64,000 nucleotides of DNA from Promethearchaeota archaeon (GCA_029838195.1 JALGVJ010000003.1:128678-192677), one strand, 5' to 3'; shown: positions 13,349 to 23,980, counted from the first letter of the stretch. Notes: a model not told the origin generated them from the letters alone. Made by a program: numbers and translations.

Positions 13349-14188
13349 TTAATTTTTTAAAAATTTAATGATGTGCTCGTTAATTTCAGGCGCTCTTTCC
13401 TTAGGAGAATCGTGTCCTGCCCCTTTAATTACCACGAGTTCGCTGTTAGGAATTTTCTCGTGAATTTTTTCATTCATTACTTTCGGGGTTTGTCTGTCTT
13501 TATCGGCACATATTATTAATGTTGGAGTTTTGACCTTGCTAAGATCCTCTAATACATTATAATTACCTAATGCATGCGTCTGATTAATGATATCTTGAGG
13601 CGTAGAAGGATTAATAGTAGATTCTTTTATTAAATCTTCGGCGGAAAAGAGCCCATGAAATACTTTCTTGGGATCCTCTCTCATCATTTTAAGAAATTGC
13701 CTGCTAAATCCCATTTTTGCCTTTTCAAAAAAAGTGCCAACAGGATCCTTTAAACGAGCATGATACGATTCAATTTGACTATTCTTATACATTTCTAAAC
13801 CAGATTTATCCGCAGGCCAACTAGGCAGCGTGTTAATTAAAACGGCTTTCTTAACTTTTTCCGGATAAAGAATCAGAAATTTTTGCACAATCATTCCTCC
13901 TAAACTCCAACCAACAATATGAGCTTTTGGAATATTTAAAGCATCCATTAACCCGGCTAGATCATCAGCAAACATTTCCATCGTATAAGGCTGATTGGGC
14001 CGATCGGATTTTCCAGCCCCACGATTATCAAATCTAATTACTTTAAAATGTTTAGAAAGAGGTTCAAACTGCCCGACCCACACTTCTTTTTTAGCTCCGA
14101 AACCGTGAACGAGAAATAAAGGTTCTCCTTCACCTTTTATCTCGTAGCAAATTTTTATTCCATTAACTTCTACGAATGATTCCGACAT
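13349..14188 (-). CDS. Alpha/beta hydrolase
   Basis: HGFG, FDNRGAGKS, nucleophile GWSLGG, ADKD, GAGH. Confidence 0.92.
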   Translation of the reverse strand: MSESFVEVNGIKICYEIKGEGEPLFLVHGFGAKKEVWVGQFEPLSKHFKVIRFDNRGAGKSDRPNQPYTMEMFADDLAGLMDALNIPKAHIVGWSLGGMIVQKFLILYPEKVKKAVLINTLPSWPADKSGLEMYKNSQIESYHARLKDPVGTFFEKAKMGFSRQFLKMMREDPKKVFHGLFSAEDLIKESTINPSTPQDIINQTHALGNYNVLEDLSKVKTPTLIICADKDRQTPKVMNEKIHEKIPNSELVVIKGAGHDSPKERAPEINEHIIKFLKN

Positions 14189-14397: not shown

Positions 14398-14838
14398 TTA
14401 TCCTAAAAAATCAGAGAAAAATTCCAGAATATTCAATAATTTGTTGGTTTTTAAATCCATGGCAAATCGGGTGGCTTTTACAACCGCTACTATTTTTCCA
14501 TCAGATTCTCGAGAAAGTTCATGGTAAAAAGTCATGGATTTATTCCCTATTTTCTCGATATTCGTAAGGACTACAATATAATCTCCAAAAGATGCCGGAT
14601 ATTCATAGGTAATATCCACGTGTTTCACGCCTAAAGCTATACCTTCATGAATTAATTGTTCAACGGGCTTTTTTCCACCCAATGAATTCATGAAACTGAC
14701 AAATCCGTCATCGAAATATACCATGTAGTTTTTGAAATGAACTATGCCCATTGCATCGGTATCATTGAATCTTACTTTCACTTTTGTGATGTCTTGATGC
14801 TCCAAGAGCTTAGTTTCTAAACCAAGCAATTTAATCAA
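14398..14838 (-). CDS. Acyl-CoA thioesterase (4HBT/YbgC hot-dog fold)
   Basis: VRFNDTDAMGIVHFKNY motif; TTG start uncertain. Confidence 0.88.
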   Translation of the reverse strand: MIKLLGLETKLLEHQDITKVKVRFNDTDAMGIVHFKNYMVYFDDGFVSFMNSLGGKKPVEQLIHEGIALGVKHVDITYEYPASFGDYIVVLTNIEKIGNKSMTFYHELSRESDGKIVAVVKATRFAMDLKTNKLLNILEFFSDFLG

Positions 14839-14924: not shown

Positions 14925-15086
14925 ATCAAATATAATTCACCTAAAAATCTTATAAAGGGGGTCAAATTGCTCCATCCATGCTATTTTTAGCTTCCGAAAC
15001 CATGTAACTAAAATTAACGATTCTCCTTCACCTTTTATTTCATGACAAATTTCTATTCCATTAACGTTTGCGAATGATTCCGTGAA
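14925..15086 (-). pseudogene. Decayed duplicate of the 5' end of the alpha/beta hydrolase gene
   Basis: Reads ESFANVNGIEICHEIKGEGESLILV/HGFGS*.../WMEQFDPL versus intact ESFVEVNGIKICYEIKGEGEPLFLVHGFG...WVGQFEPL; start codon lost, frameshifts and stop. Confidence 0.8.
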
Positions 15087-15177
15087 TTTTTAGATAATCT
15101 GGAATAGTTTTTATAGCATGATTATAAAATTTCTGGAAAATTTTTTTATATTTTTTCGAGGCTTTATTATTTCCGTG

Positions 15178-17532
15178 TTATTTTTCATGAGAAATAATTG
15201 GAGGAGGTTTCAATTTTAAGAAGGAAAAATTTTCCAGAATGTTATTTAAATCTTCTTGAGTAACAACAATTTTCTGGCCCTCTCCATCTTTATTAGTTGA
15301 GATTTTAGTATTTAAACTTTTTTCTATGATAATATTTCCATAATAATTGTGATTTAATTGCGTGATATCATACTTATTATTTTTGAGTTTAATTATTTTC
15401 TTATTTTCTAAATCGATTTTTAATTCATTAATTATTTTTATTGTAAACTTGCGGAAAGAATAAAACCTTTTCAAGTTTTTAATATTAATTGCATGAAAAT
15501 CTCCTTTTTTAACGAATTCTATTAATTTTTTAACAATGAAATTCTTAAAATCTAATCTAAGTTCTTCCAAATTATTTCGTATTAAAGATTTCTTTTTAAA
15601 ATTGTTTAACACGTGCTTTTTCTTAAAAATGGAAGCGTAATGTTCAAAACCAAGCATCATCAAGATCTTATTCTTATTTCCTTTTTTAGTAATTAATTTC
15701 TGATATAATTCATTTAATTCTTTCTTAATCCTCGTGCGGACAAATTCAATAATGATTTTTCTCACTTCTTCTTTCTTAGGTAAAATACTTTCTTGAAAAA
15801 AATGTTGGAGCTGTTCTATTGCATCCATTTCATCTATCTTAAAATTCTTCATGTCTTGAATGATTTGAAAAGGAAATTGAGAAGTTATAAATTCCATTCC
15901 ATCCCATACCAAGTTGAGAGCGGTTGGTAAATTAACTCTTATGGAAGGCCGCAATATTTTTATGCCATTACCTTTTATTGCTACCGGCTTTTTAAAACAT
16001 AGAGTTAAATCAAAAGGCTTAATCTGATTTGTTAAAGGATGGGTATCATCAGGTATAATAAAACCTTCATGGAATTGACAGATATAGCTACCTAATAAGG
16101 GAATTTTTGCTAAATCCCATTCAACTAAAATAAGATCCTCTAAATTTTTAACATTTAATTGGAAGTTTAATTCGTCATCATGAGATTCGAATACAATATT
16201 TTTTATTTTTGGTTCTTCTTCTCCCCAAAATGCCTTTATCTTATGTGGCAGCGGATTATTGCTATTAAAAATGGTTTTAAATACGGGGTAATTTTGAATA
16301 AAATCCTCCTCAGAAATATATTCTAAGTGATGTCTTTCAATTCCACATTTTTCTAATACGTAATAATGCAATGGAGGCTCTTTACGATACGGATTGGTCC
16401 ATAGAATGGATGGAAAATTATATTTCTTTTTAAATTTTAATTCTCGGAGAGAGTCTTTTTTTTGATTAGAAATTACTAAAGATCGTAAGAACGCATGTTT
16501 TTGATTTAATCCTTTTAAAAAAAGCCCATTTAATTGAACTTTATAATCACTCAATTTTTTTTGAAGGTTAGGTAAATGAGGAAAATTGCATTCTCTTGAA
16601 ATCCTTTCAAAGATTTCGACATTTTCCAATGACTCCATGTTTAATATAGATTCATTAAACTCTTGAAGGGTCATGTTAGATATTTGTTGAAAAAGTTCAT
16701 TATCATCCTTGACATTCAAGTTTGCGAAAAATGATGGTAATTTGATGATTGGTGCGAATTCATGTAAAAAATAAAATTTTAAAATTTTGTTCGAAAATCC
16801 ACTTTTTTTAAACTCGTTTAAAAGAAGTTTTTTTTCCTTATCGGGCAGCGTTTTAAAAAAGGGTTTGATATTGCTTAAAATCAAAAATTGCTTCTTAAAA
16901 TCATGATCCATTAAAGATTTAAAAATAATTTTAATGGAATCTTCGATTTGTTCCGCTTGGGACTCAATTAATTTTGGATGTTCATTCAAAATTTGTAAAT
17001 ATTTTGTGAATAATTGATTTTGAAATGCAATTTGTAAAATGTTATTTAATAGGGTCGTATCCTTAGAAATGTTATATGCCCGTTCAAAACAATCAATTGC
17101 TTCAGTAAAATTTTTACTATCCAATAATCGTCTCGCTCTTAAAAGATAATTATTAACCTTGCTCTCTTTTACACTACTATAATTAGATGTAAAATAAATG
17201 TGTTGATTACATATTTGAGAACATAATTTTGGTTCTAAAACTAATAATAATTTTACCACGTGTTTACAATATCTATTACCTTTTTCAAAATCGGGGCAAT
17301 CATGAACGAGAGTAAAATTTTTATCGGTTTCATTCTGAGATACATGAATGATATATTTCGAAGTGCCAGAACCTTGAATTGTAGCAGAAATAGAAATCAA
17401 GGGCTCTTCTTGAATTGTTAAATCAATAATATTTTTATTGGGGATGCTTTTTCCCCGACTCAGTCGTGCCCCTCTTACTAGACGCTTAAAATATTGCAAA
17501 TTTTCATAATGATTTTTAATTTCCATGTTCAT
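15178..17532 (-). CDS. SWIM zinc-finger protein with TPR-like and helical extension
   Basis: ATIQGS..KYII...HDCPD..GNRYCKHV (SWIM, HxC variant); FTEAIDCFERAY TPR-like helix pair. Confidence 0.75.
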   Translation of the reverse strand: MNMEIKNHYENLQYFKRLVRGARLSRGKSIPNKNIIDLTIQEEPLISISATIQGSGTSKYIIHVSQNETDKNFTLVHDCPDFEKGNRYCKHVVKLLLVLEPKLCSQICNQHIYFTSNYSSVKESKVNNYLLRARRLLDSKNFTEAIDCFERAYNISKDTTLLNNILQIAFQNQLFTKYLQILNEHPKLIESQAEQIEDSIKIIFKSLMDHDFKKQFLILSNIKPFFKTLPDKEKKLLLNEFKKSGFSNKILKFYFLHEFAPIIKLPSFFANLNVKDDNELFQQISNMTLQEFNESILNMESLENVEIFERISRECNFPHLPNLQKKLSDYKVQLNGLFLKGLNQKHAFLRSLVISNQKKDSLRELKFKKKYNFPSILWTNPYRKEPPLHYYVLEKCGIERHHLEYISEEDFIQNYPVFKTIFNSNNPLPHKIKAFWGEEEPKIKNIVFESHDDELNFQLNVKNLEDLILVEWDLAKIPLLGSYICQFHEGFIIPDDTHPLTNQIKPFDLTLCFKKPVAIKGNGIKILRPSIRVNLPTALNLVWDGMEFITSQFPFQIIQDMKNFKIDEMDAIEQLQHFFQESILPKKEEVRKIIIEFVRTRIKKELNELYQKLITKKGNKNKILMMLGFEHYASIFKKKHVLNNFKKKSLIRNNLEELRLDFKNFIVKKLIEFVKKGDFHAINIKNLKRFYSFRKFTIKIINELKIDLENKKIIKLKNNKYDITQLNHNYYGNIIIEKSLNTKISTNKDGEGQKIVVTQEDLNNILENFSFLKLKPPPIISHEK

Positions 17533-17538
17533 GCTTGA

Positions 17539-20500
17539 TTATTGAGTTGAAATTATTTTTGAAATTAATTTTGGAAAATCACGCCATTGATTAAGGGTAA
17601 GTAATACTCCATTTACCTTTTTTACCATTTCTTGAGCCATGACAGGAGAATAATCAAACTTTGGTACGACCATGACAAATTTTACATCTTTCTCTTTTAT
17701 TTTTTCTAATTCCTCCAAGCTCTCCTCAAAATCGAACACGTCGGCGTCCGTAAAAAGAACATTTATTCTATATTTCGAGCGTGCTTTTTTTTCAAATTGA
17801 TTATTTGCCCATTCTAAAGCCGAACGAATACATGTCCCCCCTCTAGCTTCTATATCTAGCAATTCATCCACTAAATCTTCTAATTCAACATTTTCATCCA
17901 GATCTTTAAGTTTATGGGTATTAGATTCAAAAAACGTGAGTGCTAATTCTTCCGGTTTAAAAGCATAAACTAACATGGTTGCACATAAAGCCATTTGGGC
18001 TAGTTTTTCCCCGGTCATGCTCCCGCTTATATCTAATTCCAGCACGAGACATCTTAACCCTTGAGATGTTTTCGAAACAAGAAAATCTTCATCACTAATC
18101 ATTTCAATTGTTTTCCCGGATTCTAAAAGCGAGCTAATGGTCTCTTCTAAGTCAATTAATTCGAAATCATCCCCTAAGGAATAGGGAATGACAGTGTTTT
18201 CAACTATAGGTCCGGCATTTGCGGTGCCGATCAAAGAATTTGCTGAACGTAACCCTAAATCAATCATGATTTGTTTGATGATCTGTTTCAATTTCAATTT
18301 AATCTTAGAAGAAATGTTATGGCGAGAAAAAAACCATTGTTCTAACAAATCCAACCCGTTACCTGCTCCCAATGAAGATAAGACCATCTCTAAAGCATCA
18401 TCTCCCATTTTTTGTACAGAATTAAATACATCGGATAAAGATTTTTCACACAGACAAGTAATAGCATCAAAATTTGGTTTGCCATTACTGGTTCCTTTCA
18501 AAGCAATTTGCAGAACCTCCTCTACTTGTTGAGAACTTAAATCTAATTGATTCAAGCTATCTTTATAAAGTGGATAACCTTTAGGCATGTTTTTTTTTAC
18601 TAAAGCTTTAAAATAGTTAAATTTTGATTCGATTAAATTTAAAATGTCCTCTTCAGCCATTCCTAACATTCGTCCTCTCTTAATGATTGAATCTGGATTG
18701 GGAGGAAAATTTACATCTCTAAAACTTTTTACGATAGTTCTTAAAAGTTCCGGAGTTGGCACGACATTAATGGTTTTATCTATAATTTCTGCGATTTCAT
18801 GTTCAAGTTGTAATCTACAAGTTAAATCAGGACAATTGGTCCGATTCGAAATGAATTGATCCGCTAGCATTTTAAGTGAAATGCATTTATTTTTCGCATC
18901 ATGAGAAGTCGTGTTAATTTCATTCATGTCTCTTTCAATTAATTCGTGCATCAACTTGCGCCAAGCTGGTGATTTGACCGGAGATTTTATTAATTCTTGC
19001 TTAATTTCCTCGGTTTGATTATTGACCGAAAAGGTATTAAGGTTATTTAGTATCGTGTTAAGATAAGATTCCGTATAATTTCCTCCAAAATATCTATCTA
19101 AATTTTGACAATCATGATACACGTCCTTAAAAGGGAGATCCATGCTGTTCTCGATTACCTGATTTATTTCTTCGTCATCAAATTCAAAATGTCTTCCTAG
19201 AGTAGTAGCTGCATTAAATAAATCATGGACCGTTCTATTTTGCTCAAGTAACGTGTTTCCTATTATATCTTTCAATTCTCTTTTAGTTTGCTCGTCCATG
19301 AGATCTGATTTTAAAAAGAAGTCCATATCTTGAATTGTTCCGTTAAAATCCTTACGCATTGATTTCTCCATGCTATTTAAAAATTGATCTTTATTTGCAA
19401 TAGGGTTCTCCTTTTTCTTGTTTAAAATATCTTTTTGAGCTTCAATTGCATCGATTAATTTTTCATTTTTTTCTAATTCTTTCTGTAATCTTCTTTTTTC
19501 TTGCTCTTTCTCTACTTTTGAATATAAATATTCTATATTTTCTTTTTCTTTTTTTTTCCAGGAGAGAAATCGATCCAGAAAATTCATGGTTTCATCCAAT
19601 TGAGATTTTTCCGTAAACATTGCCTCATTTTCTCCAAGTCTCTTGGCGAAAAAAATTAAGTTATCGAGTTCCTCTATGTCTTCAAGTCCCATTGCACCGG
19701 TCAATTGAGAATCTTTTATAGATTTATCAGATTTAGGTGGAGGTTGGGTCTTTACATTTGAAAGATTTTCAATAATAGTATCCAAGAGGTCAGTAAATTC
19801 CTTTTTTTCATCATCACGCCATAATTCCTCCTGTTCTTTTTGAGCAATCCGTGCAAGTAATTTTTCCCGGTTAATTTGAGAGTTTTCAATGATTTCTTGT
19901 AACATGTTTAAATTTTTAGCATCCAACACGTCCGAAGGTTCTAAATGATTGATTTTTTCTGATAAAAGCTTCCTGGCCATGCTGACTAACGAATCGAGAT
20001 CTTTTATTTTTTGAACATCTAAATCTCCATGGTTTTGTATGATGTCTAAAGCCGTTTTATATGGTTCTTTCTCTAAATCATTCGCATGGGTTTCAAATAT
20101 GTTATTATCTATTATGCTCTCCACCTTCTCTATATCAAAATCTACTAATTCTTCTTGATATTGTCTCAAAAATTCAAGATCGTCGAAAATATCCTCCAAT
20201 TCATCATAATTTTCATTTAAATCACTCAATAAATCTACTGCTTTTTCTCCAAAAAATAAATTAGATAGAAATGCATCACCTCCCCGTCCCTTCTCGTCCC
20301 TGTCTGAATAAGATAATAATTGAGTCGCTATTCTTCTAGCTAAGGCCTGATTCTCTAATGGACTTGTTACTACGGCAATTTCAATGAAATCTTCAACCTT
20401 ACATGACCCCTTATTTAGAAATCTTGCTATTATCAGCGAACAAATAGCAATTGCTTGTCTAATGGATGGTTTATATAAACATTTTTCATGGTTTCTCAGA

Positions 20501-20553
20501 GCCGTGATAAATTTTAATGCAAACCAAGTCGGATTCATGGGAAATAGAATCAT
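17539..20553 (-). CDS. Large vWA (MIDAS) domain protein, MoxR partner
   Basis: C-terminal LELDISGSM, RGGT, FTDAD MIDAS residues; long acidic/coiled-coil middle. Confidence 0.88.
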   Translation of the reverse strand: MILFPMNPTWFALKFITALRNHEKCLYKPSIRQAIAICSLIIARFLNKGSCKVEDFIEIAVVTSPLENQALARRIATQLLSYSDRDEKGRGGDAFLSNLFFGEKAVDLLSDLNENYDELEDIFDDLEFLRQYQEELVDFDIEKVESIIDNNIFETHANDLEKEPYKTALDIIQNHGDLDVQKIKDLDSLVSMARKLLSEKINHLEPSDVLDAKNLNMLQEIIENSQINREKLLARIAQKEQEELWRDDEKKEFTDLLDTIIENLSNVKTQPPPKSDKSIKDSQLTGAMGLEDIEELDNLIFFAKRLGENEAMFTEKSQLDETMNFLDRFLSWKKKEKENIEYLYSKVEKEQEKRRLQKELEKNEKLIDAIEAQKDILNKKKENPIANKDQFLNSMEKSMRKDFNGTIQDMDFFLKSDLMDEQTKRELKDIIGNTLLEQNRTVHDLFNAATTLGRHFEFDDEEINQVIENSMDLPFKDVYHDCQNLDRYFGGNYTESYLNTILNNLNTFSVNNQTEEIKQELIKSPVKSPAWRKLMHELIERDMNEINTTSHDAKNKCISLKMLADQFISNRTNCPDLTCRLQLEHEIAEIIDKTINVVPTPELLRTIVKSFRDVNFPPNPDSIIKRGRMLGMAEEDILNLIESKFNYFKALVKKNMPKGYPLYKDSLNQLDLSSQQVEEVLQIALKGTSNGKPNFDAITCLCEKSLSDVFNSVQKMGDDALEMVLSSLGAGNGLDLLEQWFFSRHNISSKIKLKLKQIIKQIMIDLGLRSANSLIGTANAGPIVENTVIPYSLGDDFELIDLEETISSLLESGKTIEMISDEDFLVSKTSQGLRCLVLELDISGSMTGEKLAQMALCATMLVYAFKPEELALTFFESNTHKLKDLDENVELEDLVDELLDIEARGGTCIRSALEWANNQFEKKARSKYRINVLFTDADVFDFEESLEELEKIKEKDVKFVMVVPKFDYSPVMAQEMVKKVNGVLLTLNQWRDFPKLISKIISTQ

Positions 20554-20573
20554 GGCCCATTCCTCACCTCTAT

Positions 20574-21689
20574 TTAAGCTCCTCCCCCTATTACTTGAGA
20601 AACAATGTTTTTAGTGACGTCCTCTATTTTTATACCCGGTTTTGGTTGGATAGCTCCTTGAAGAACTATGGGCACAATTGTCCGCAAGATAGAGTGAGGG
20701 TCAGCCTTTTTTTCTTTCATTTTTATGATACCCGTTAATCGAGCCATGGCAATTCCCGCTCTAAGACTCGCCGGAACTTGAACTTGATGATGAGTACGCG
20801 TGCTGTGAATTATTAAATAAATCATTTCTAAGGCACTTTCATCGATTTGAAAATAGGGATTGTTATGTTCAATGATTTCCAATTCTGTTTTTTTATCGGG
20901 ATAATCTAATTCTATCCAAACATTAAATCTATCCTTTAGAGCTTCGCCAAGACGATGTGTACCTGCCAATTCCGAGGGATTCATAGACCCGATGAAAAAA
21001 AAACCGGGGGATGCTTTGATTCGTCCTAAATGAGGAACAGCCACGGTTTTTTCTTCTAAAGGCTCTAATAATGAATTTTGCGTATATTCCGTAGCCCGGT
21101 TAATTTCATTTGCTAAAAAAACCCCTCCGTATAACATTGCTTTAAGTAGTGGTCCTGGATTAAATGCTTCAAATGAAAACCCTTTTTGAATCGTGACAGC
21201 AGGATTAAAACTTCCAATTAAATGAGCCGGTTTAGTGGATTCATCAAATGTAATCCATTCAAAAGAATTATTTCCTGTTAATTCAGCTCTTGCTTGTGCA
21301 TAATATCGGCATAAAGTGGTTTTTCCGATTCCTGGAGGTCCTACTAATACTGGATAGAGATTCCCCGCATCAGCTTCCGCTATGAGATTAAAAGCTTTTT
21401 TGTATTGACCGGATAATACAATTTCAATTTTTTCTTCTTTTAATGTTATCAAATTTTGTTTAAAAAGCTCTTCCAACGATTTGGAACTAGAGCCATTTAC
21501 TCCAGCTTGGAGGTATGGCGACTTCTTTAATAGTCTTAAAATATCATTAGATAATTTTTCTTTTGCCGATTGTTTAGCCCCTTTTTTAGGCAATTTTTTC
21601 CCGGATCCACGAGTTTTCGACGACCGAGAGGAAGAGGAGGTAGCTTTTTTAGATGTTCTGGATTTTTTTACAGGTGGTTTTTTTGCCAT
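20574..21689 (-). CDS. MoxR-family AAA+ ATPase with basic low-complexity N-terminal tail
   Basis: Walker A GPPGIGKT, FNPGPL, FLANEINRA, GSMNP, Arg finger ALKDRF, DYP. Confidence 0.92.
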   Translation of the reverse strand: MAKKPPVKKSRTSKKATSSSSRSSKTRGSGKKLPKKGAKQSAKEKLSNDILRLLKKSPYLQAGVNGSSSKSLEELFKQNLITLKEEKIEIVLSGQYKKAFNLIAEADAGNLYPVLVGPPGIGKTTLCRYYAQARAELTGNNSFEWITFDESTKPAHLIGSFNPAVTIQKGFSFEAFNPGPLLKAMLYGGVFLANEINRATEYTQNSLLEPLEEKTVAVPHLGRIKASPGFFFIGSMNPSELAGTHRLGEALKDRFNVWIELDYPDKKTELEIIEHNNPYFQIDESALEMIYLIIHSTRTHHQVQVPASLRAGIAMARLTGIIKMKEKKADPHSILRTIVPIVLQGAIQPKPGIKIEDVTKNIVSQVIGGGA

Positions 21690-21913: not shown

Positions 21914-22966
21914 TTAATAAATACAAATTTTAAATCCACAATATTTACATTCTCCCTTTAAATTTACGTGCATCTCATCAATTCCAAAAATTTTTCTTTT
22001 AATGACGATTTTGGAACATCTCGGACAAATAGTATTTTCATAAGACAAGTCGGGCACGTTTCCTAAATAAACGTGTTTTAATCCCGTATTTTTAGCAAGA
22101 GTATATAATTTTTTTAATAATTCTATAGAAGTGGGTTTATTAAATCCATGATCCCAACTTTTATAATGAGGATAAAATCTGGTTATATGGAATGGAGTAT
22201 ACTCTCCAAGCTCGGAATAGATTCGGGAAGCAATAGATTCAATCGTTGGACTATCGGAATTTAAATTCTCTATAACGAGAGTAGTTATTTCCACATGGAT
22301 CCCTAATTCTTTAGCAATACGTGCATTTCTCCACACTTTTTCAACATCTGCTCCGCAATATTTCCTTACAACTTCAGCATTTCCTTTAACATCAATGTTA
22401 ATGGCATCTAACCCCGCTCTTGCTAATTCCTTTAGCACGTCCTCTGTCATGTAGCCATTTGAGACATATGTATTATATAACCCATGTTTTTTAGCTAACC
22501 TAAATAATTCCAATGAATACTCAAGAAGTAAAGTAGGCTCATTGAAGGAAATTGAAGTTCCTTGACAATTATTACGGAGAGCAAGTTTAATGAGATCTTC
22601 AACCGAGAGATAATGAGATGATCTTTTAATTAATAACGGAATTGGGTCTCTAGGATGAGAGAGATGATGGTTTTGACACCAAAAACAATCAAAATTGCAT
22701 CCATATGTCCCTATAGTTAAAGCAATAGTTCCGGGGTGAAAATGAAATAATGGTTTTTTCTCTATGGGATTAAAAGAAATAGCAGGAATGCACCCATATA
22801 CGATGCTAAATATCTTTCCTTCTTTATTTATCCTGGTTTTACAACAACCAAGATTATTAGGAATAATCACGCATTTTCTTTCGCACGTAAGACATTGAGC
22901 ATTATTATTTTTTAATCTTTTTTGAAATCGCCCTTTTTTATAATATTTTGGATTAATTTCAATCAT
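21914..22966 (-). CDS. amrS: AmmeMemoRadiSam system radical SAM enzyme
   Basis: PIEKKPLFHFHPG, CNFDCFWCQN, FNEPT, SNGY, N-terminal CLTCERKC and C-terminal CPRC...CKYCG. Confidence 0.92.
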   Translation of the reverse strand: MIEINPKYYKKGRFQKRLKNNNAQCLTCERKCVIIPNNLGCCKTRINKEGKIFSIVYGCIPAISFNPIEKKPLFHFHPGTIALTIGTYGCNFDCFWCQNHHLSHPRDPIPLLIKRSSHYLSVEDLIKLALRNNCQGTSISFNEPTLLLEYSLELFRLAKKHGLYNTYVSNGYMTEDVLKELARAGLDAINIDVKGNAEVVRKYCGADVEKVWRNARIAKELGIHVEITTLVIENLNSDSPTIESIASRIYSELGEYTPFHITRFYPHYKSWDHGFNKPTSIELLKKLYTLAKNTGLKHVYLGNVPDLSYENTICPRCSKIVIKRKIFGIDEMHVNLKGECKYCGFKICIY

Positions 22967-23248: not shown

Positions 23249-23980
23249 TCATTCATGTTGAGGAACAATCAATTCTATAGCGTATTTTTTTAATAGAGTT
23301 AAAACATCTTCTTTAATTTTCTCTGCAATTTTAAAACAAATGAAAAATCGCTGAAATTCCATATTATAAGTTTTCTCAAGAAATTGAATTTTCTTAATGA
23401 AAGTTCGAATTTTATCTAATTCCGTGATTTTAAGGGTAGCTTCTCCAATTATATTAGGATTGATATGGAAAATATCGATTTCGACATCCTCCGTGTCAGG
23501 ATGCACGAAATGTTCTTTGTCCGTAAAATGCTGTCTTATTTGTAAATCTACATTTAAACCTCTATTTTTAAATTCACGTTTTACAATTGAATACCCCATC
23601 CCTTCTACTACATCAGAATATCCTATATCAATCGCATCAAATCGCTCGTATACTCTATCAAATCGATCGTCCATCTGTTTTTGCATGGCATTGAATCGGT
23701 CATCCATTTGTTTTTGCATGGCATTGAATCGGTCGTCCATCTGTTTTTGCATGGCATTGAATCGGTCGTCCATCTGTTTTTGCATGGCATTGAATCGGTC
23801 GTCCATCTGTTTTTGTATGGCATTGAATCGCTCGTCTATTCTTTCCATAGCATCGAGAAACTCATCTCTAGTAAGAAAATTTTCCTTCAGATATTTAATT
23901 TGAATAGCTTTTACTTTTTCTTCTATTTTAGATTCAATTATATTTTCAATTTCTTTAATTAAATGCGGATCGATGGTCAT
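23249..23980 (-). CDS. Coiled-coil tandem-repeat protein with C-terminal PD-(D/E)XK-like domain
   Basis: (NAMQKQMDDRF)x5; then E...EIDIF...IIGEAT. Confidence 0.75.
   Translation of the reverse strand: MTIDPHLIKEIENIIESKIEEKVKAIQIKYLKENFLTRDEFLDAMERIDERFNAIQKQMDDRFNAMQKQMDDRFNAMQKQMDDRFNAMQKQMDDRFNAMQKQMDDRFDRVYERFDAIDIGYSDVVEGMGYSIVKREFKNRGLNVDLQIRQHFTDKEHFVHPDTEDVEIDIFHINPNIIGEATLKITELDKIRTFIKKIQFLEKTYNMEFQRFFICFKIAEKIKEDVLTLLKKYAIELIVPQHE
23661..23836. repeat. 33-bp intragenic tandem repeat, 5 full units plus a partial unit
   Basis: Consensus aatcggtcgtccatctgtttttgcatggcattg, with units starting at 23661, 23694, 23727, 23760, 23793 and a partial at 23826. Confidence 0.97.

Follow-up and report, generated by a model that had tools for sequence, protein, structure and literature searches.

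What does a MoxR ATPase do when its gene is joined to those of a very long vWA protein and of a SWIM-finger protein, and what does such a machine act upon? The question is posed by positions 15178-21689 of a 64,000-nucleotide stretch of DNA (the window; GCA_029838195.1 JALGVJ010000003.1:128678-192677) from a Lokiarchaeial (Asgard) genome, where these three genes form an operon. MoxR-vWA motors are widespread, few of them have known clients, and Asgard archaea are the closest prokaryotic relatives of eukaryotes. In the literature we found no publication describing a MoxR-vWA-SWIM machine. With moderate confidence, we conclude that the three gene products form a single remodelling machine driven by ATP, composed of a MoxR motor, a vWA adaptor and a SWIM/TPR scaffold.

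The operon consists of three co-oriented open reading frames on the minus strand, which encode proteins of 371, 1004 and 784 aa and are separated by gaps of 20 and 6 bp:

20574-21689, minus strand: gene for the MoxR-type AAA+ ATPase, 371 aa, type A paralogue (the types are set out below); from the open reading frame and Pfam AAA_5/AAA_3
17539-20553, minus strand: gene for the long vWA adaptor, 1004 aa; from the open reading frame, Pfam, alignment and an AlphaFold model
15178-17532, minus strand: gene for the SWIM-like scaffold, 784 aa; from the open reading frame, alignment and predicted structure

An initial annotation had described this same arrangement, with a MoxR gene, a 1004-aa protein carrying a MIDAS (metal ion-dependent adhesion site), a 784-aa SWIM protein and the same two gaps, and the open reading frame listing and Pfam confirmed it. 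GAGG stands 5 nt 5' of the first (ATPase) ATG, the operon is preceded by a 224-bp AT-rich spacer, and behind the final stop comes a short run of T. A scan of the window with Rfam returned no RNA family.

The three genes occur together well beyond this genome. The MoxR-vWA-SWIM order was found in 21 of 21 related loci; in one of these, the SWIM gene is separated from the vWA gene by a gap. Scanned by pattern, 185,579 species genomes yielded 135 relatives, and in nearly all of the best 80 of these loci the trio stands in order; the exceptions are loci cut by contig ends, one locus of 2 kb whose shortness precluded scoring, and two in which a further open reading frame stands between the vWA and SWIM genes. 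All of the best 80 come from Promethearchaeota (Asgard) assemblies or from bins labelled 'uncultured archaeon'. A pattern search for distant relatives, built from an eight-sequence alignment, recovered the trio also in assemblies labelled Heimdallarchaeota and Thorarchaeota and in Promethearchaeum syntrophicum MK-D1. Scaffold matches are present in 27 of 41 related whole genomes and, in a 301-genome sample of the phylum, scaffolds of type A or type B occur in 61 of the 68 sampled genomes of the window's family. The linkage of MoxR, vWA and SWIM genes is far beyond chance, and the family is confined to Asgard archaea among those members whose organism is named in the record. This gene-neighbourhood survey supports the candidate proposed in the initial annotation, a conserved ternary MoxR/long-vWA/SWIM system; the SWIM gene, which that annotation allowed might prove unlinked elsewhere, was linked in every related genome examined.

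The trio exists in several diverged versions, which we call types. Scaffolds of type A are 40-44% identical to the window scaffold and those of type B about 25%; between the two types the third protein is 25% identical and the ATPase 57%. Of 69 genomes of the family, about 16 have type A, judged by score band. A type B trio is present in this genome as well (G000:C38:110129-115929, locus L117), and the window copy, of the rarer type A, is best explained as an accessory paralogue to the type B machine, which is the commoner of the two. In at least one complete genome (G009) the only scaffold is of type A, so type A may stand in for type B. Type D is a distant version, present in the Heimdallarchaeota-labelled assemblies and in the cultured Promethearchaeum syntrophicum MK-D1 (NZ_CP042905.2, around 2.98 Mb). 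Type E is a single metagenome locus (L034), sister of type A in the tree of MoxR proteins. The trio is inseparable across the four diverged lineages A, B, D and E. In a maximum-likelihood tree, the MoxRs of types A/E, B, C (described below) and D form one group (Shimodaira-Hasegawa-like approximate likelihood ratio support 97), within which each type is itself one group; outside it fall the short MoxR-vWA pair, MRP-type and CbbQ-like ATPases and E. coli YehL. The tree was a quick one, rooted at its midpoint, and its long branches are unreliable.

The features of the ATPase that bear on its part in the machine are as follows:

21489-21689, minus strand: basic N-terminal tail (residues 1-67) of low complexity, net charge +18
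20925-21350, minus strand: AAA+ core of the ATPase, residues 114-255, the span of the Pfam AAA_5 match

Pfam matches this protein with AAA_5 (4e-21, 75.9 bits against a cut-off of 22) and AAA_3 (9e-17, 61.6 bits against 27). The Walker A sequence GPPGIGKT is invariant in 89 of 89 ATPase relatives, and Walker B reads FLANE, with Asn-Glu and not Asp-Glu, in the same 89; the sensor-1 Asn, the DR Arg-finger region and the PASxR sensor-2 align with those of other MoxRs. Since two further MoxR types of this genome, that of the short pair and the CbbQ-like one, share the Asn-Glu variant, we rejected it as a hallmark of the family. The tail distinguishes type A: all 26 type A ATPases carry one, of 54-106 aa, rich in K, S, T and P and with a net charge of +7 to +21, whereas type B has none (median 2 aa), including the copy in this genome, and type C has 4-17 aa. 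The ATPase lacks the curated features of the CGN subfamily (CbbQ/GvpN/NorQ). The initial annotation had held open a grouping with GvpN, and the score for GvpN (NCBIfam TIGR02640) is 61 bits, far under the curated level of 266.8, while no CbbQ_C domain was matched by Pfam in the protein. Among sequences in the PDB, NorQ gave 34.9 bits and CbbQ about 22, the Pfam family bpMoxR gave 18.8 bits against a 27-bit cut-off, and plasmid MoxR matches were all at most 37% identical and carried generic names only.

The second protein, the adaptor, is built from five recognizable parts around a long helical body:

20311-20532, minus strand: N-terminal four-helix lid-like domain with sensor-2-like PSxRQ, residues 8-81
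20074-20310, minus strand: acidic disordered linker, residues 82-160
19360-19800, minus strand: lineage-specific 146-aa coiled-coil insert, residues 252-398
18052-18228, minus strand: conserved, unmodelled pre-vWA segment, residues 776-834
17542-18054, minus strand: vWA domain with complete MIDAS, residues 834-1004

The vWA domain is supported by Pfam: VWA_2, VWA_CoxE and VWA match residues 800-991 and all pass their Pfam cut-offs, VWA_CoxE (PF05762; residues 800-965) with 28.1 bits against 26.4. Of the MIDAS residues, D841, S843, S845 and D936 are invariant in 96 adaptor relatives and T907 in 95 of the 96. Foldseek matched this domain to vWA domains, including NorD and the MIDAS of MDN1. The AlphaFold model of the whole protein has a mean predicted local distance difference test score (pLDDT) of 70; residues 163-773 are all-helical in it, the linker is predicted disordered (pLDDT below 50), and the N-domain comprises helices at residues 8-21, 31-48, 53-63 and 66-81. 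An acidic stalk, as noted initially, is real, and it corresponds to the disordered residues 82-160, whose net charge is -14 to -22 in type A and which are acidic in all types. The insert at 252-398 is a gap in the other 20 aligned adaptors and the sole insert longer than 30 aa among 96; one 1009-aa database relative covers 100% of the adaptor query and may share it. The pre-vWA segment, partly inside the VWA_CoxE match, holds about 18 invariant columns despite a pLDDT of about 30 (GP..N.V.P...GDDF..IDLEET...GK...DDF.V..T..G.R) and could be a contact element for the ATPase.

The N-domain of the adaptor aligns to the lid/sensor-2 region of the window's own ATPase (hhalign 84.5%, E 7e-6, 40 columns), its PSxRQ pairing with PASxR of the MoxR, and P29, S30, R32 and Q33 are invariant. 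This bears on the initial suggestion of a chelatase-like design, of which the layout stands and the ATPase core does not. As in ChlD, BchD and CobT, the chain opens with an AAA-derived N-terminus, continues in an acidic linker and closes with a vWA domain that bears the MIDAS, and there is a separate active AAA+ partner. In the adaptor, however, the AAA remnant is only lid-sized (about 40 columns) and lacks the ATPase core, a helical insertion of about 600 aa is present, and no ChlH/CobN-type subunit is linked. Among NCBIfam families, BchD-ChlD (TIGR02031) did not match the adaptor.

The same annotation had compared the system to a split midasin, which would make it a relative of the eukaryotic Rea1/midasin ribosome-assembly motor or its forerunner. 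Both systems unite modules of the AAA_5 kind with an acidic stretch and with a MIDAS at the end, the host here is an Asgard archaeon, and midasin was the top match of the ATPase among PDB sequences (phmmer, 4.7e-31). That score, however, is composed of six weak AAA matches, the best of 25.8 bits, whereas the single-domain bacterial MoxR 2r44 reaches 52.9 bits in one domain. The E-value is an artefact of a target with six modules; the window ATPase has one AAA module, and YehL matches midasin too. Searches of solved structures by sequence matched the adaptor to generic vWA domains only, the vWA profile finding CLCA1 and not midasin; the MDN1 MIDAS came at rank 50 among generic vWA folds in Foldseek, and the acidic stretch of the adaptor lies near its N-terminus, not beside the MIDAS. 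We rejected a special kinship with midasin and consider a split midasin highly improbable.

The single-module motor and its adaptor find a closer counterpart in NorQ-NorD and CbbQ-CbbO. There, too, a one-module MoxR stands beside a long helical adaptor with a C-terminal vWA domain, and NorD is among the Foldseek matches. The window system differs in its third, obligatorily linked scaffold, in the lid-like N-domain and acidic linker of its adaptor, and in that no metalloenzyme client is linked. Judged by this analogy, the NorQD mechanism would be the best working model for the window machine.

The third protein of the proposed machine is the scaffold, which can be divided into four regions:

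17188-17532, minus strand: N-terminal beta-sheet and SWIM-like zinc knuckle, residues 1-115, predicted ligands at 17260-17304
16453-17187, minus strand: TPR-like helical repeat region, residues 116-360
15673-16452, minus strand: middle domain, residues 361-620, with the signature EWDL...PD...PFD...C
15181-15672, minus strand: C-terminal 'CT' domain, residues 621-784

Pfam gave SWIM (0.002, 18.1 bits) and TPR_2 (0.011) for the window protein, and its SWIM family matches 4 of 20 scaffold members. The predicted zinc ligands H77, C79, C89 and H91 are invariant in 20 of 20 aligned scaffolds; the motif, HxC-x9-CxH, is a His-for-Cys variant of the SWIM pattern CxC...CxH, and a hidden Markov model (HMM) of the N-domain retrieves many small SWIM proteins. 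Two small proteins encoded in this genome, of 343 aa (G000:C42:144097-145125) and 229 aa (G000:C69:63055-63741), have the same His-variant SWIM (HDC...CKH) and sit outside any MoxR operon. In the scaffold model (mean pLDDT 74), residues 116-360 are helical at pLDDT 80-95 and residues 360-530 are poorly modelled. The TPR-like body (116-330) is supported at the level of fold only, by VIA Z scores of 8-10 and by Foldseek TPR matches with E above 0.01. The middle domain has the invariant residues E471, W472, D473, L474, P494, D495, P506 and F507, and its EWDL...PD...PFD signature recurs in the distant Heimdall, Thor and MK-D1 scaffolds. Scaffold relatives numbered 203 at E of at most 0.001 among 1.84 billion representative proteins, with about 20 full-length clusters. 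A PDB sequence search with the scaffold gave no match to a solved structure, and searches with the whole predicted fold (Foldseek against PDB, ESM Atlas shapes, VIA) returned TPR-like helical proteins or SWIM/SNF2-associated ones at a TM score of about 0.2 only. The best matches of the CT and middle domains by ESM Atlas features (DUF8422, eukaryotic; 0.84-0.89, about 115 of 256 features shared) were set aside as noise.

A trio of this composition recalls the bacterial YehL/YehP/YehQ type, to which the initial annotation had pointed, and one could picture an archaeal orthologue of YehL-YehM-YehP-YehQ in which YehM and YehP are fused into the 1004-aa protein. Both clusters draw on one set of domains, with a MoxR of the AAA_5 kind, a big helical protein, a vWA of CoxE type and a SWIM protein encoded in a single operon, and their order is roughly alike. 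Literature searches for yehL/yehQ yielded nothing of relevance. Compared with the proteins of E. coli (NC_000913), however, the window proteins showed generic AAA and vWA similarity only. With single E. coli sequences as templates, hhalign gave 0.09% for the scaffold against YehQ and 1.8% for the adaptor body against YehM, no similarity for either pair in a comparison that could miss very remote homology, and no DUF5682 (YehM-type) match was found in the proteins by Pfam at E of at most 0.1. YehL is 25% identical to the window ATPase (1e-11) and lies far outside its group, on a branch of 4.4 changes per site. Homology is found only in the generic AAA, vWA and zinc-knuckle parts, and the window SWIM motif is of the HxC...CxH form. 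Membership in the Yeh type was not borne out, and orthology with a YehM-YehP fusion seems quite improbable. The resemblance of the MoxR-vWA-SWIM trio to YehLMPQ, as to midasin, is architectural only.

Where the scaffold of the proposed machine would meet its motor is suggested by another operon of this genome, which we call type C:

G000:C47:18118-24758 (locus L116:5116-11744), minus strand: type C operon, outside the window, same genome

Its gene order is a Rad50-like zinc-hook ATPase (847 aa, with CEYC), a 172-aa CT protein, a MoxR (307 aa) and a vWA adaptor (857 aa). Nine further places show the same order, and type C is present in 4 of 41 related genomes. The Rad50-like protein matches the AAA_23 and Rad50 models at about 1e-34, far under their cut-offs, and the LmuB model of the Lamassu system at 1e-33. 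Its MoxR and adaptor are sisters of those in the window (37% and 30% identical, respectively), and the type C adaptor also has a lid-like N-domain. A domain-by-domain HMM search of the genome showed that the 172-aa protein is homologous to the CT domain of the scaffold (hmmsearch, 8.9e-12), and hhalign of the scaffold CT against the stand-alone CT gave 98.7% (E 1.5e-16, 143 columns). The SWIM trio and the Rad50-like operon are thus joined here by a shared motor, adaptor and CT domain; they differ in that type C has a Rad50-like front end, its CT is a separate gene upstream of the motor, and its gene order is another one. A search of the literature found no publication on an Asgard Rad50-like/MoxR/vWA operon.

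In all 10 informative places, one of them in a genome from another family, the stand-alone CT gene adjoins a MoxR-vWA pair, and in nine of the 10 a Rad50-like gene was confirmed on its far side. CT is also fused to leucine-rich repeats (LRR) or HEAT repeats, in proteins whose genes do not lie by a MoxR gene. Since CT is the only element that the third component has in common in types A, B and C, it is the part expected to join the third component to the motor and adaptor. The linkage of these genes suggests that CT probably connects the partner to the motor, with the variable front end picking the target. A more far-reaching reading, which we offer tentatively, is that CT is a portable docking module by which SWIM-TPR, Rad50-like and LRR/HEAT front ends address one MoxR/vWA family to DNA-bound complexes. 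In two Heimdallarchaeota-labelled assemblies (L125:4698-9443 and L129:1174-5892) the type D scaffold is about 1575 aa long because a C-terminal HEAT array of about 800 aa is fused to it.

The type C operon also brings in the question of defence. If the machine were a nucleoside triphosphate-dependent anti-virus conflict system, the scaffold would sense an invader and the motor would release an effector. MoxR-vWA ternary systems with a variable third protein have been described (PMC7159879), and the window trio is like them in having a third protein with a variable helical part and a C-terminal docking-type domain, and in occurring as several diverged paralogues per genome. Types A and C have a patchy distribution; of the three proteins the third changes fastest, being 25% identical between types where the ATPase is 57% identical; and the type C partner resembles LmuB. 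The published systems, on the other hand, have VMAP-C, iSTAND, FtsH or beta-propeller components or effector domains that the window trio lacks, and carry their effectors after the vWA domain, which in the adaptor is the last in the chain; the paper that describes them has 0 mentions of SWIM (PMC7159879). Pfam and PADLOC matched none of the three proteins to an effector domain such as a nuclease, protease or TIR; in PADLOC the adaptor and scaffold had no match and the ATPase only weak generic ones. The score for bpMoxR is below its cut-off and no VMAP or iSTAND family was matched. Type B is near-universal in the family, its placement and that of type A among housekeeping genes is stable, and no defence genes or mobile elements were seen beside the window, type A or type B loci. 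Because of the patchiness of types A and C and the LmuB-like partner of the latter, we keep defence as a candidate, with a small chance of being right.

We instead favour a client-addressed remodelling machine, the working of which can be sketched by analogy with NorQ-NorD and CbbQ-CbbO. The MoxR protein would form a hexameric ring that holds and pulls the adaptor, and the adaptor would be anchored to this ring, perhaps via its lid-like N-domain and the pre-vWA segment. The MIDAS may grip an acidic residue of a partner or client, and pulling or twisting of the adaptor by the motor would remodel or release whatever is gripped. For NorQD, a vWA finger has been described that enters the pore of the ATPase, with remodelling of a linker (PMC13036017), and a general statement on ternary MoxR-vWA systems goes in the same direction (PMC7159879). 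The third protein would act as the targeting subunit: the comparison of paralogues suggests that its CT domain links to the motor and adaptor and that its SWIM-TPR-middle part recognizes the target. Given the SWIM finger here, the Rad50-like zinc-hook front end in type C and the basic tail of type A ATPases, the target could, speculatively, be a DNA- or chromatin-bound complex, a suggestion we regard as possible and on the whole doubtful. If true, Asgard archaea would possess modular, client-addressed remodelling with a logic like that of the midasin MIDAS docking on tagged assembly factors, evolved independently; and if the idea holds, it would define a new modular class of AAA+ remodelling machines for archaeal chromosome biology.

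Several observations weigh against this proposal or parts of it. The link to DNA is circumstantial, and SWIM domains also bind proteins. The SWIM score of the scaffold is under the 19.6-bit cut-off of the family (PF04434), and searches with the whole scaffold model reached the TPR part only, giving no fold for the middle and CT domains. An HMM of type C CT proteins alone matches the type B scaffold (7.1e-13) and not the type A protein of the window, and the CT homology of the window scaffold therefore rests on the alignment of types A and B together. With Asn-Glu in place of Asp-Glu in Walker B, the rate of ATP hydrolysis, as far as the motif can tell, is uncertain. The linkage counts come from related genomes, which are not independent samples. 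A connection to chromosomes might be read from the type B loci, which have a DNA methylase gene upstream and, downstream and co-oriented (for example L062:10989-15486), genes for CoaBC in 41 of 55 loci, then for an unusually long topoisomerase VI B (about 1100 aa) in 26 and topoisomerase VI A in 12; with CoaBC in between, this synteny may be inherited gene order and not a functional link. A link to DNA repair through Nre, a PCNA-binding repair factor family, was dropped, as Nre stands beside the short MoxR-vWA pair in 17 of 68 related loci only.

The genes around the window operon and other type A loci encode a radical SAM (S-adenosylmethionine) enzyme, a histidine phosphatase, alpha/beta hydrolases and a major facilitator superfamily transporter. 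The gene for the first of these is the immediate upstream neighbour of the operon, in the same orientation:

21914-22966, minus strand: radical SAM gene (PF04055), 350 aa

Of 25 type A loci, 14 have a homologue at this position. This raises another explanation, that the trio is a chaperone for metal-cofactor insertion or enzyme maturation (NorQD-, CoxDE-, CbbQO- or CobST-like), perhaps for this very enzyme. NorQD and CoxD mature metal centres (PMC3893208; PMC13036017), and the adaptor vWA passes the VWA_CoxE cut-off. Yet no enzyme gene is linked across types A-D, the constant partners being scaffold or CT proteins only; type B loci are without a radical SAM neighbour, and in the window a gap of 224 bp separates the radical SAM gene from the operon. 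Neither in the window nor at 80 related loci were CO-dehydrogenase (coxMSL) genes found nearby. We judge maturation of an enzyme to be unlikely as the role of the trio, and retain the remodelling machine addressed by its scaffold. Overall, the neighbours give no clear functional pointer, and the context is housekeeping-like.

Some minor observations were made in the course of the analysis. A 350-aa radical SAM gene also adjoins one type C operon (L123). Elsewhere in the genome, a short MoxR (289 aa) is paired with a CoxE-like vWA protein of 367 aa (G000:C94; L137:6775-10268); the pair is highly conserved, 66-81% identical within Lokiarchaeia, and is followed here by the Nre gene. Downstream of the SWIM gene and upstream of the operon, the window contains the following:

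14960-15090, minus strand: spacer with a decayed 5'-end copy of an alpha/beta-hydrolase gene (13349-14188)
14398-14838: thioesterase gene
23249-23980, minus strand: open reading frame of 243 aa with about five tandem copies of the 11-residue MQKQMDDRFNA

Because other type A loci keep intact hydrolases within one or two genes downstream, the thioesterase gene seems to have been inserted.

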